DNA of 64,000 nucleotides from the NCBI GenBank assembly GCA_963840855.1, contig CAWJBB010000058.1, positions 1 to 64,000 of the forward strand. Reading direction: 5' to 3'. The notes beneath the pieces were generated by a model. The model was not told where the DNA came from. It saw nothing but the letters and a program-made list of their open reading frames with translations, and searched no databases. Made by a program: the position numbers and the translations under genes. Each line of letters begins with the position of its first letter. Position 1 is the stretch's first letter. This stretch comes from an uncultured delta proteobacterium. Its GTDB lineage: Bacteria; Desulfobacterota; Binatia; UBA9968. Below, piece after piece: positions 44,257 through 48,235 of this stretch.

Positions 44257-45435
44257 CTATGAGGCTTTTTCAGCAGCCTGCGCCGCGAAGGAAAACGCGT
44301 CATAACCTTCGTGAATGAGACGAATGACTTCGTCTTTTTTCGGATCGCGGTTGACGCCCACCGGGTCTCTACCTTCTTGCACCGCAAGAATCTGCTCGCG
44401 CAGGAGTTTGCGGTACATGATGACACCGCGGTCCCCTTCACCCAGGTGTTCGTTGGCGCGGTCGGCTATGGGGCCCTGGGTCTCCCACGCCATGTGGTCC
44501 TGGCTGGCAAAGCTTTCCATATGGAACTCGCCGTCTTCGTTCTTGGTGCGGACATACTCGATCGGCGCGTCCTCGGGCTGCGCCACGACACTGCCATCCT
44601 TGCTCGGCGCGAAGCGGAACTGAATGACTTGCGTGTTTTGGTCATCGATGGGCGTGCGAAAATGCATGGCGTAACCCATGCGCACGGGAACGAAGAGAAG
44701 GTTGGGAAAAACCAACGGGTGCGGTGATTCCACCGGGCCATCTTCGCCCGCGAAGGTCCTTTGTTTTTGAATCCCCGCCCAGCTGGGATTGACCACCAGT
44801 TCAAAATCGATCTTGCTCAGCCGCTGATAATGAAAGGGTACGAAGTCTCTGGTCCCTTTGGTTTTTAGCGTGTGCGAGTGAAGATAATACGTATGCGTCG
44901 GATCGACGGAGTTCTCCATCGCCTGGAGCCAATTGCAGCCAAGCACCTCGCAAATGTCGATTTTCTTCAAGCCGTCCTCGCGCACGAGTAGATCCCACTT
45001 GGGTAAAGTCGGCTTTTTCTCCGGCGGTCCCATGTAGGCGAACAAAAGCCCCGCGAGTTTTACCACCGGGTAGGCTGGATGCTGAATTTTCTCCTTGAAA
45101 CCGGCCTCCGGACTCTCGAAGGGCTGGTCGATGCATTTGCCGCACGCGTCGTATTTCCAGCCATGATAGGCACAGCGGATGCCGTCTTCCTCGACGAATC
45201 CGTAATAGAGCGATACGCCGCGGTGCGAACACTTTTCGGCGACGAGACCGTAATTTCCTGTACGGTCTCGATAGAGGACCAGATTTTCGCCTAAAATTTT
45301 TACTTTCTTTTTTGGTTTTTCGTCGCTGAGCTCCGCGGCGGCCGCCACCACATGCCAATAACGCCTCAGCAGTTGTCCCGCGGGCGTCCCAGGACCTACG
45401 CGCGCAAGCAAATCGTTTTCTTCGTGACTGAGCAT
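44257..45435 (-). CDS. Rieske non-heme iron oxygenase (phthalate 4,5-dioxygenase/LigX-like)
   Basis: CSH...CAYH Rieske motif; NWLQAMENSVDPTH...LH; QDHMAWETQG. Confidence 0.92.
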   Translation of the reverse strand: MLSHEENDLLARVGPGTPAGQLLRRYWHVVAAAAELSDEKPKKKVKILGENLVLYRDRTGNYGLVAEKCSHRGVSLYYGFVEEDGIRCAYHGWKYDACGKCIDQPFESPEAGFKEKIQHPAYPVVKLAGLLFAYMGPPEKKPTLPKWDLLVREDGLKKIDICEVLGCNWLQAMENSVDPTHTYYLHSHTLKTKGTRDFVPFHYQRLSKIDFELVVNPSWAGIQKQRTFAGEDGPVESPHPLVFPNLLFVPVRMGYAMHFRTPIDDQNTQVIQFRFAPSKDGSVVAQPEDAPIEYVRTKNEDGEFHMESFASQDHMAWETQGPIADRANEHLGEGDRGVIMYRKLLREQILAVQEGRDPVGVNRDPKKDEVIRLIHEGYDAFSFAAQAAEKAS

Positions 45436-45563
45436 GGCATAAACTCCTTTATCGTACTCAACGCGGCTTTGATCCGATGCGACGATGCTATGCGATGGCT
45501 TCGTGGGTGTCAATGTAAAGGAGGCGAAGGTGTGGGCGGGTGATCCTCGCAAGGGAGAGCGAT

Positions 45564-45640
45564 GTAGGCCCCCGTGCATGCCCGAATCCGGGCGACCACA
45601 GGGGGTCGCCCCTACAAATATTCACGAACTAAACCACTAC
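45564..45640. repeat. GTAG REP pair with one MITE-like end (inverted relative of 23724-23814)
   Basis: GGGCGACCACAGGGGGTCGCCCCTAC followed by AACTAAACCACTAC. Confidence 0.75.
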
Positions 45641-45698: not shown

Positions 45699-46148
45699 GT
45701 GAACTGGCAAGAAAACCTGGTCGACGATTCAGATCAAATCGCCGCCTTGATCCGGCAGACCAAACGCATCGCCGTTCTCGGCATCAAGACCGAAGCGCAA
45801 GCCGACCAGCCTTCCGTTTACGTGCCGCTGTATATGCAACGGGCCGGATACGAGATCGTTCCGGTGCCAGTATATTACCCGGATGCGACTGAAATCTTGG
45901 GTGAAAAGGTCTATCGGCGACTCACCGACATCCCCGGCGATATAGACATGGTCGATGTCTTTCGCCGTCCCCATGACATCAACAGCCATATCGAAGATAT
46001 TCTCGCTAAGAAACCGCCTTTAGTTTGGTTTCAGAGCGGCATACGCAACGATGCCGCGGCGGAAATCTTCGCCAAGGCCGGGATAAAGGTGGTCCAAGAC
46101 CGCTGACTTATGGTCGACCACCGGCGGTTCGCCGGTGCAGTCCGCTGA
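45699..46148 (+). CDS. CoA-binding protein (YccU-like); in-frame TGA at 46104-46106, candidate selenocysteine
   Basis: IAVLG, IDMVDVFR, WFQSGI, then KVVQDR-TGA-LMVDHRRF, matching the family ending V.DRC..V.HR. Confidence 0.85.
46116..46142 (+). promoter_or_regulatory. Candidate bacterial SECIS hairpin
   Basis: GAC-CACCGGCG-GTT-CGCCGGTG-CA-GTC; apical loop starts with G, 20 nt after the UGA. Confidence 0.65.
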
Positions 46149-46174
46149 AAGGAAGTACTTTTTTCGGCACCCTG

Positions 46175-47299
46175 CTAGGTCAAAAGATGGCGCGTCAAGT
46201 CGAGATTGGCGGTGAATGCCTCCGGCCGCGGTAGTTTCACGGAAGAATTGTAGATGATGAGAGGAATGTTCGACTCATGGAGGGAGCCGTGTGAACGGTA
46301 ACCGCGTTCGAGCTTTTCCATCGGTCCGGTAAGTTCGCCAAAAACAGTCTGGGCATCGCCGAAAACTGCCAAATCACCTATCCGTTCGGCCATAAGATCG
46401 TACTTTTCCGCGGCTTCTCGACGCGGTAGGACGGCCTCCACGCCCGTGAGACTCTTGAGTGTCTGCGTCACTATTTGTTCGTCTTCCGGCGAGTTAAGCC
46501 AGACCCACGCGGCGCCACCGAACGTTCGGTGGTGCTTGACGTAACGGTCTTTTTCCGCCGACAGCGCAAAACGCACCTCGACGCCCAATTCGTGGCAAGC
46601 CTTGGCGAGGTCCCAACAGCGAGTTTTGTAGTTCATACCATGATCGGCCGTAAGCAAGAACGCGGCATCCGGCGCCGCTTCCAGCGCTTTGGCTAAGAGC
46701 CCATCTAGCCTTTCCAAGTGTTCTTTCGACTGCCGTTCTTCCGGAGCCCAAGTGTGCATTGGAAAGTCGGTGGTATGAACATACAGTAAGCCGATGTCCT
46801 TACGGTGTTTGAGCAGGTCGACGGCCACTTCCCACAGCCAGTAATTGATCTCGCAGCTGTAGATATTGGCCGGCTTGCCGTAGAGACCAACCCACTCAGC
46901 GGGCGGCGCTTCCGCGGCGATCGCGATTTCCGCGCCTTTGCCGAGCAGGTGAATGGTTTTGACTTTGGCGGTGAGCAGCGCCGATTTCACACCGCGGGCC
47001 GCGGCCCGCTGAATGATGGTCGGAACCCGAATGAACTCCGCGCTTTCCATATAATCGGCCACGCCGGTTTGTTCGTTGAAGTAGGAGTTGCCTGTAATGC
47101 CGTGATCCTTCGGCCATGCGCCGCAGCAAATGGATACGTTGTTGGCGTTGGTGACCGTCGGGAAAACCGCGTCAACCCGCTTAAAAAAGCCGCGCTGGCA
47201 CATGAAGCGAAACGTCGGTAGAGAGTTCGCTTCGAGATAGTCCATGCCCAGACCATCGTACATGCCGATAACGATTCTTTGTGCGCCGATCAGCGTCAT
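46175..47299 (-). CDS. phnA: Phosphonoacetate hydrolase-like alkaline phosphatase superfamily enzyme
   Basis: MYDG, FPTVTNANNVSI..G...HGITGN, YVHTTDF..H, TADHGM, D.YVKHH, RSHG match PhnA motifs. Confidence 0.75.
   Translation of the reverse strand: MTLIGAQRIVIGMYDGLGMDYLEANSLPTFRFMCQRGFFKRVDAVFPTVTNANNVSICCGAWPKDHGITGNSYFNEQTGVADYMESAEFIRVPTIIQRAAARGVKSALLTAKVKTIHLLGKGAEIAIAAEAPPAEWVGLYGKPANIYSCEINYWLWEVAVDLLKHRKDIGLLYVHTTDFPMHTWAPEERQSKEHLERLDGLLAKALEAAPDAAFLLTADHGMNYKTRCWDLAKACHELGVEVRFALSAEKDRYVKHHRTFGGAAWVWLNSPEDEQIVTQTLKSLTGVEAVLPRREAAEKYDLMAERIGDLAVFGDAQTVFGELTGPMEKLERGYRSHGSLHESNIPLIIYNSSVKLPRPEAFTANLDLTRHLLT

Positions 47300-47380: not shown

Positions 47381-48235
<855 letters not shown>

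Follow-up and report, generated by a model that had tools for sequence, protein, structure and literature searches.

A putative selenocysteine form of the PF13380 CoA-binding protein family in Binatia

The PF13380 family (CoA_binding_2) includes single-domain proteins of solved structure, namely TT1466 from Thermus thermophilus (PDB: 1IUK/1IUL), PH1109 (2D59/2D5A) and a Klebsiella protein (2DUW). Escherichia coli YccU and Bacillus subtilis YneT are placed in the same family by name. In B. subtilis spores, YneT is covalently modified with coenzyme A (CoA) at Cys126, as found by liquid chromatography-tandem mass spectrometry (LC-MS/MS) of the peptide TVIMDLC126IK, and that study gives the protein no function (PMC8127865). 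For prokaryotic selenoproteins, a 2026 inventory lists 119 families and subfamilies in its Table 1 (PMC13188914). The bacterial selenocysteine insertion sequence (bSECIS) model, as given in that inventory, has a loop of 3-9 nt, an upper stem of 4-16 bp, a G among the first two nucleotides of the loop, a UGA-to-loop distance of 16-37 nt and a minimum free energy of at most -7.5 kcal/mol (PMC13188914). Here we describe a PF13380 gene at positions 45699..46148 of a 64,000-nt window, by which we mean the whole stretch of DNA that was analysed (positions 1 to 64,000, forward strand, of contig CAWJBB010000058.1, GenBank assembly GCA_963840855.1). The DNA derives from an uncultured delta proteobacterium of the Binatia. 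The gene product shares family, fold, length class and a stand-alone gene with the solved proteins. Unlike the solved and named members, which all have Cys, it has the family's invariant Cys encoded by a UGA codon accompanied by a SECIS-type hairpin. We hold with high confidence that this is a real selenoprotein gene.

UGA at the invariant cysteine of a PF13380 protein

The open reading frame (ORF) starts at GTG 45699, and translation table 11 ends it at TGA 46104-46106, after ...KVVQDR. Beyond this TGA the frame continues as U-LMVDHRRFAGAVR and is closed by a second TGA at 46146-46148, with 13 codons leading from the first TGA on to the true stop. The features of the locus are as follows.

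45699..46148, + strand: coding sequence (CDS) of the putative CoA-binding selenoprotein, 149 residues, with a GTG start, selenocysteine (Sec) at residue 136, then the true stop
46104..46106, + strand: UGA predicted to be read as Sec (residue 136), at the family's invariant Cys in the V-V-Q-D-R-C motif
46116..46142, + strand: SECIS-type hairpin inside codons 140-149, with an 8-bp core stem, a GUU loop and an optional 3-bp extension
46146..46148, + strand: true stop TGA, with no hairpin 3' of it

The read-through product matches Pfam PF13380 over residues 22-141, i.e. beyond the TGA (E = 1.2e-33; 116.5 bits against a cut-off of 22.8; profile positions 1-115 of 116). No specific NCBIfam model was found for it, the best match being an acetate-CoA ligase (E = 0.003). 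An AlphaFold2 model computed from 46 diverse relatives reaches a predicted local distance difference test (pLDDT) score of 97.1. In this model, residues 137-147 form the last helix and residue 136 caps its N-terminus. Foldseek returned 1IUK as the best fold match (E = 3.4e-15, TM = 0.84/0.92, RMSD = 1.4), with 2D59 also among the best and ADP-forming acyl-CoA synthetases, PatZ and the alpha subunit of succinyl-CoA synthetase (SCS) at lower ranks. The gene product is thus a single-domain PF13380 protein of the YccU/YneT/TT1466 type with a Rossmann-like fold, and it is predicted to bind CoA on the basis of its family membership.

In an alignment of 46 sequences (36-63% identity to the query), each of the 45 others has Cys in the column of the TGA, and just four columns, C136 among them, are invariant. 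A wider comparison covered the query and 67 representatives of 50%-identity clusters. Among these 68 sequences 62 have Cys in the column, whereas the C-terminus of the other six is garbled. In the solved homologues 1IUK, 2DUW and 2D59, a Cys within a D/N-R-C motif aligns with the TGA, and phmmer pairs the product with T. thermophilus TT1466 (1IUK; E = 1.1e-28) with D-R-C-L-M-V-E-H aligned. By sequence comparison, the codon forms a Sec/Cys pair with its homologues.

The hairpin consists of a 5' arm CACCGGCG (46119-46126), a GTT loop (46127-46129) and a 3' arm CGCCGGTG (46130-46137), and can be extended by GAC (46116-46118) pairing with GTC (46140-46142) across a 2-nt bulge. This structure is also the fold of lowest energy, and the 81-nt stretch scores z = -2.66 against 200 shuffles. 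The stem-loop lies 9-12 nt downstream of the UGA, within the CDS. Sec136 is 13 residues from the C-terminus and the SECIS occupies almost all of the remaining ORF. Judged by direct comparison with the published bSECIS constraints, the hairpin falls within every one of them, with a 3-nt GUU loop, an 8-bp stem, 20 nt from UGA to loop and -14.4 kcal/mol for the 26-nt hairpin alone.

These elements had been proposed in an initial annotation made from the letters of the window, which described an ORF that stops at KVVQDR in a frame continuing to a second TGA at 46146-46148, a YccU-like CoA-binding protein with UGA exactly on the conserved Cys, and a SECIS-like hairpin with a perfect 8-bp stem, a GAC/GTC extension and a G-first loop 20 nt from the codon. 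The frame and the hairpin are present as described, and the family, the Cys column and the SECIS-like identity are borne out by the PF13380 match, the alignments (including the three solved homologues) and the bSECIS comparison.

We infer that selenium is actually inserted into the protein at this codon. UGA 46104-46106 would be decoded by SelB and Sec-tRNA(Sec), recruited by the in-ORF stem-loop with its 8-bp GC stem and GUU triloop, and translation would go on across the last helix until it reached the true stop at 46146. The explanation that the gene encodes a 149-residue CoA-binding protein in which Sec replaces the invariant Cys is the best available, and we consider it very probable.

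Recurrence of the UGA and its hairpin in related genomes

A search across 123 species-level genomes of the window's order (cut-off E <= 1e-40) found an orthologue in 70, with 29 rows flagged for TGA. In 26 of the 28 flagged rows that were read, the TGA coincides exactly with the Cys codon; the other two (G516, G504) are Cys forms in which the TGA is the true stop. After removal of these two, 27 of the 70 orthologues are flagged with TGA at the Cys codon, 26 of them read and the remaining one belonging to the unpublished genome G483. One further row (G486) matches residues 1-91 only, short of the codon. The unpublished genomes G015, G009, G483 and G462 enter the counts given in this text as single rows and the tree described below as one Cys row, and no conclusion rests on them. 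About 42 orthologues of the order have Cys, and the non-Sec forms that were read carry TGC or TGT.

Sec forms occur in all four genomes of the window's genus that have an orthologue, in a sister genus (g17; 18 flagged, 17 read) and in a genus of another family (g23; 5/19). Across the phylum, 401 evenly sampled genomes contain just nine close orthologues, with TGA only in the window's own. Two collection scans yielded TGA forms at 14 of 80 and 4 of 77 loci. Public record titles of the near relatives name Candidatus Binatia, delta-proteobacterium or Thermodesulfobacteriota metagenome-assembled genomes (MAGs).

Contigs of two independent DNA sequencing studies span both the codon and the hairpin (X1, 45728-46154; X2, 45721-46244). 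Because they list no difference at 46104-46106, the codon being TGA and not TGC or TGT, an assembly error at this codon is excluded, and the broader idea that faulty sequencing or assembly turned a TGC or TGT into TGA has a negligible probability. Apparent frameshifts in selB and fdhA of the same assembly could be cited in its favor, yet those faults are indels, not substitutions, and the same TGA stands in 26 independently assembled genomes. The initial annotation had proposed searching related genomes for recurrent TGA/Cys pairs and confirming the base in raw reads. The pairs recur, with conserved codons downstream of the TGA in the relatives, and the contigs of the two studies agree on the base. 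None of the refutation tests named there overturned its reading.

In all Sec forms that were read, L-M-V-[DE]-H-R follows the TGA in frame, as in the Cys forms, and both the Pfam profile and the AlphaFold2 model depend on these residues. The relatives' true stop lies 10-14 codons after the internal TGA and is TAA, TAG or TGA, its position varying 0-4 codons past ...FAG, while the internal codon of the Sec forms is always TGA. Sequence conservation in the relatives collapses at the terminal stop.

In a database of 5.8 billion proteins, the 120 closest clusters (90% identity) include 89 that terminate at ...DR, 84 of these at exactly 135 aa, and the 89 are named "CoA-binding protein" or "hypothetical protein". 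Gene callers systematically truncate the Sec form at 135 aa. Since these 89 clusters end exactly at ...DR, the Sec form is common in metagenomes and routinely truncated. The same records, mostly of 135 aa, would also fit a TGA that is a real stop, with a 135-residue truncated protein as the product and the downstream frame and hairpin as a relic; some truncated product is to be expected anyway, as Sec decoding is never fully efficient. A relic would decay, however, yet the ten codons after the TGA are conserved, up to the second stop, in 26 genomes at 75-93% protein identity, and TGA arose at this codon in two separate clades, accompanied by a hairpin in either case. Truncation would also cost the protein its only invariant Cys and the last helix of a fold predicted with a pLDDT of 97. 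We therefore regard a genuine stop as very unlikely.

The sequence after the TGA is conserved beyond its coding function. In clade 1, represented by 15 unique sequences with 75-93% protein identity, the third codon position is invariant in 7 of the 135 codons of the whole CDS, in 1 of the last 30 before the TGA and in 7 of the 10 after it. Positions +12 to +32 after the TGA (CACCGGCGGTTCGCCGG) are identical in 15/15 sequences and encompass the hairpin CCGGCG/GUU/CGCCGG at +17..+31. Five further genomes fall outside this set. Three have the identical element and two vary: in G469, a GCC to GTC change costs an Ala-to-Val substitution and keeps the pair as a G.U wobble, and in G491 the loop is GUC. 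Clade 2 has a different hairpin, GGTCGCC/GGC/GGCGACC at +19..+35, which is identical in 5/5 genomes and lacking in the nearest Cys relatives of the clade. With a GGC loop, a 7-bp stem and a spacing of 23 nt, it too agrees with the bSECIS constraints. Judged from these patterns, the hairpin is conserved at the RNA level, in the manner of an RNA element that is coupled to the UGA. The folding energy of positions +9..+45 points the same way at the 80 loci compared, at -12.9 kcal/mol in 14 Sec forms versus -7.8 kcal/mol in 66 Cys forms (Mann-Whitney p = 9e-6, a value overstated by the kinship of the sequences).

A maximum-likelihood tree of residues 1-135 only (160 unique orthologues, 20 of them Sec forms; unrooted) requires three state changes, with two Sec clades (SH-aLRT 95 and 84) among Cys forms and one Cys form inside clade 1. 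This nested Cys form (L057/L218; G492:C65; TGC) keeps the CCGGCG/CGCCGG stem and has CTT in place of GTT as its loop. It has the look of a recent reversal from Sec to Cys in which the SECIS is decaying; the tree being unrooted, naming the changes gains or losses is a matter of interpretation.

A hairpin at the 3' end of a gene, near a convergent gene that ends at 46175, might instead be a transcription terminator or another regulatory element unrelated to decoding. The hairpin has no T-tail, was not called by the terminator scan and has no Rfam match. Conserved codons contain it at a constant spacing from the UGA, Sec forms have it and most Cys forms lack it, and a hairpin of different sequence arose at the same place with the second TGA clade. 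A role apart from decoding is consequently extremely improbable.

Short contigs of runs X1 and X16 at 46077-46127 represent a relative that is about 86% alike, and no difference is listed at the TGA. They diverge after it (...CACCG-CTACGGCGGTAAG / CTTCGGCGGTAGCC) and can be folded as ACCGC/GCGGT with a UNCG-type tetraloop. This may be a third hairpin type, from an unsampled lineage.

Selenocysteine machinery and other selenoprotein genes

The genome of the window (G000) is a 7.1-Mb MAG of 93 contigs that is 94% complete with 8% contamination. It encodes selA, selB and selD together on contig C1. The selA gene is intact (616 bits), and selD (383 bits) has its own in-frame TGA in ...KAAG-U-AAK.... 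An fdhA gene (C40:300397-303685) has a TGA in the U-H motif and is split into three frames. A genome-wide scan for TGA followed by a 6-bp stem with a GTT triloop gave 70 candidates, mostly noise; eight were followed by Pfam, of which three were convincing and five were not. The scan was conditioned on GTT and is silent on the share of SECIS elements with a GUU loop in this genome, so that only the selD and fdhA hairpins are independent of this choice. The hairpins of these genes are as follows.

selD: GUGCAA / GUU / UUGCAC, 33 nt from the UGA
fdhA: GUCCCC / GGUCU / GGGGAC, 18 nt from the UGA
Peroxiredoxin (T-P-G-U), C61:121149-121679 (L223): GUU triloop, 17 nt from the UGA
CMD/AhpD-like gene (C-F-Y-U), C2:83873-84481 (L222): GUU triloop, 17 nt from the UGA

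The peroxiredoxin with T-P-G-U and the CMD/AhpD-like protein with C-F-Y-U are known selenoprotein types. Like the CoA-binding gene, all four have the UGA on a conserved Cys and a small, G-first loop on a GC stem 17-33 nt downstream. Unlike known selenoproteins with an in-ORF SECIS, the CoA-binding protein has neither a UxxC or CxxU motif nor a thioredoxin fold. In clade-2 genomes, selD has a 7-bp stem (GGUGCAG / GUC / CUGCACC) of the same architecture as the hairpin of their CoA-binding gene. Among 41 relatives, selA is present in 39 and tRNA-Sec in 30, including the same-genus G002, where its anticodon is tca, and the clade-2 genomes G038 and G039.

Several observations weigh against Sec decoding in this genome. 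The selB gene (C1:38613-40500) is broken at a TTATTTT run into two parts (208 + 193 bits) that lie in different frames. As fdhA is also split, assembly indels seem common and the selB frameshift is likely one of them, in line with the remark in the initial annotation that the other apparent errors of the window are indels; a real selB defect is a conceivable alternative. The initial annotation had proposed a search for selA, selB, selD and tRNA-Sec: the three protein genes are there, selB in frameshifted form, and tRNA-Sec was not found in the assembly by ARAGORN, Rfam RF01852 or blastn with the tRNA-Sec of G002, though most relatives have it. The assembly contains 39 tRNA genes in all and no contig below 9.7 kb, and short contigs seem to have been removed from it. 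Because 8 of the 66 Cys forms also fold at <= -12 kcal/mol at the same place, the hairpin alone does not discriminate Sec from Cys. Among assembled sequences from RNA libraries, a metatranscriptome contig (X15) covers 45715-45923 and run X16 has several pieces, including that at 46077-46127 from a relative; none spans the gene, and contigs of RNA libraries cannot show transcription.

The missing tRNA-Sec and the frameshifted selB would be accommodated if the UGA were read through without Sec, by near-cognate Trp or Cys insertion or by stop reassignment, with the hairpin merely slowing termination. The code is not reassigned, because TGA serves as the true stop of the same gene and of its orthologues. 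The residue replaced is moreover an invariant Cys, as is characteristic of Sec/Cys pairs. The hairpin agrees with those that follow the UGA in selD, the peroxiredoxin, the CMD/AhpD-like gene and fdhA of the same genome, and nearly all relatives (39/41) have selA. Read-through of this kind is accordingly a highly improbable account of the locus. Sec insertion, as first suggested in the initial annotation, has the support of 26 genomes with TGA, the fit to the SECIS model, the presence of selA, selD and selB and the other selenoprotein genes.

The genome also encodes a full-length RtcB RNA ligase (C10:52821-54380, L224; PF01139, E = 4.5e-170, profile 1-426 of 426) with an in-frame TGA in G-Y-D-I-N-U-G-V-R and an 8-9-bp hairpin with a GUU triloop 22 nt downstream. 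A single in-frame TGA, at any codon, is flagged in the RtcB orthologues of 8 of 25 relatives, two of the 8 being unpublished. RtcB is not among the families in the 2026 table of selenoprotein families (PMC13188914). It may constitute a second undescribed Sec/Cys pair in this genome.

Possible CoA thiol chemistry and significance for the family

Sec almost always replaces a catalytic Cys, usually a redox-active one, so that where Sec and Cys alternate in nature they point to the residue at which a protein is active, a principle in agreement with the 2026 inventory (PMC13188914). In this case they single out the invariant residue of a family that occurs in bacteria and archaea, whose crystal structures are known and whose function is unassigned. 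Aligned by hhalign with the N-terminal domain of an ACD-like synthetase from the same genome (Prob 96.6%, E = 6.9e-10), the family profile places VVQDRC on LLGPNC, and the GPNC of this synthetase in turn corresponds to that of the genome's SucD (BLASTP E = 3e-7). The Cys of the SucD motif is the residue called Cys123-alpha in E. coli SCS, which adjoins the CoA thiol. In the ADP-forming acyl-CoA synthetases and SCS-alpha, the GPNC Cys thus matches the column of Sec136, and ACD, PatZ and SCS-alpha are also among the structures returned by the fold search. These enzymes are multi-domain ligases with a phosphohistidine mechanism, whereas the Binatia protein is a single domain. To our knowledge, none of the GPNC-Cys ligases is a selenoprotein.

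A second comparison comes from YneT, whose peptide TVIMDLC126IK fits the family motif V-[VI]-x-D-x-C-[LI]-x (e.g. members DVIMDKCIKVEH) with its Cys in the column that is Sec here, an equivalence by motif only. YneT is a Cys protein from a Firmicute, whereas the Binatia protein has Sec. If the two positions correspond, the CoAlation of Cys126 in the spore study shows that the residue in this motif column reacts with the CoA thiol in vivo (PMC8127865).

We propose, because of the GPNC alignment, the disulfide of YneT Cys126 with CoA and the capping of the last helix by residue 136, that the protein may act on the thiol of CoA. The N-terminus of a helix often lowers the pKa of a thiol. The Rossmann-like domain would hold the nucleotide end of CoA and set the CoA thiol beside residue 136 at the N-terminus of the last helix, where the selenol could react with CoA sulfur species and form a CoA-S-Se-protein bond. 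The protein would then be a CoA-specific thiol/disulfide exchange catalyst or carrier rather than a passive CoA binder, with candidate roles in handling CoA disulfide or persulfide and in adding CoA to, or removing it from, protein thiols. That the selenol forms a CoA-S-Se bond and catalyzes or carries CoA thiol exchange is a tentative proposal, to which we assign a probability somewhat short of even.

This chemistry draws on homology and on a single proteomic finding, made in a homologue with Cys, and some results speak against it. Aligned by hhalign with the single SucD sequence, the family profile gave no alignment (Prob 0.3), so the link to SucD goes through the ACD-like protein. Conservation of the gene neighbors ends at the genus, and they lend no support to a function. 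In the window, the genes at 44257-45579, 46175-47299 and 47381-48235, all on the - strand, encode a Rieske-type oxygenase (PF00355 + LigXa_C), a protein of the type I phosphodiesterase/nucleotide pyrophosphatase family (PF01663) and an ABC-transporter ATPase, respectively. Stop-to-stop ORF clustering of the flanks of 160 loci, which is noisy with shadow ORFs of GC-rich DNA, revealed no convincing same-strand partner.

Table 1 of the 2026 inventory has no entry for PF13380, YccU or a CoA-binding protein (PMC13188914). Full-text literature searches returned nothing relevant that links selenoproteins or selenocysteine to YccU, PF13380, CoA-binding proteins or the Binatia, and those on TT1466 and PH1109 turned up nothing of use. 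By term search, neither the deep-Sep paper nor a review from 2022 mentions the family, and supplementary tables of the surveys could still list it. The initial annotation could not confirm whether this Sec/Cys pair had been reported. As far as the literature was searched it has not, and the PF13380 Sec form appears to be a selenoprotein family not yet described.

Annotation pipelines miss the Sec form, as is evident from the 89 of 120 closest clusters that are recorded as truncated proteins, and this form is seemingly common in soil and sponge-associated Binatia. For the family as a whole, the Sec/Cys pair and the CoA-Cys126 disulfide of YneT turn a "putative CoA-binding protein" into a testable CoA-thiol hypothesis. 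The YccU/YneT family could consist of CoA-dedicated thiol-exchange enzymes whose Cys or Sec forms a covalent CoA-S-S(e) intermediate, which we view as possible although not the likelier outcome. If true, the Binatia protein would be the first selenoprotein with selenium acting on the CoA thiol, perhaps serving as a de-CoAlase, a handler of CoA persulfide or CoA disulfide, or a covalent CoA carrier. It would also represent an additional selenoprotein family that lacks both the thioredoxin fold and a UxxC/CxxU motif.

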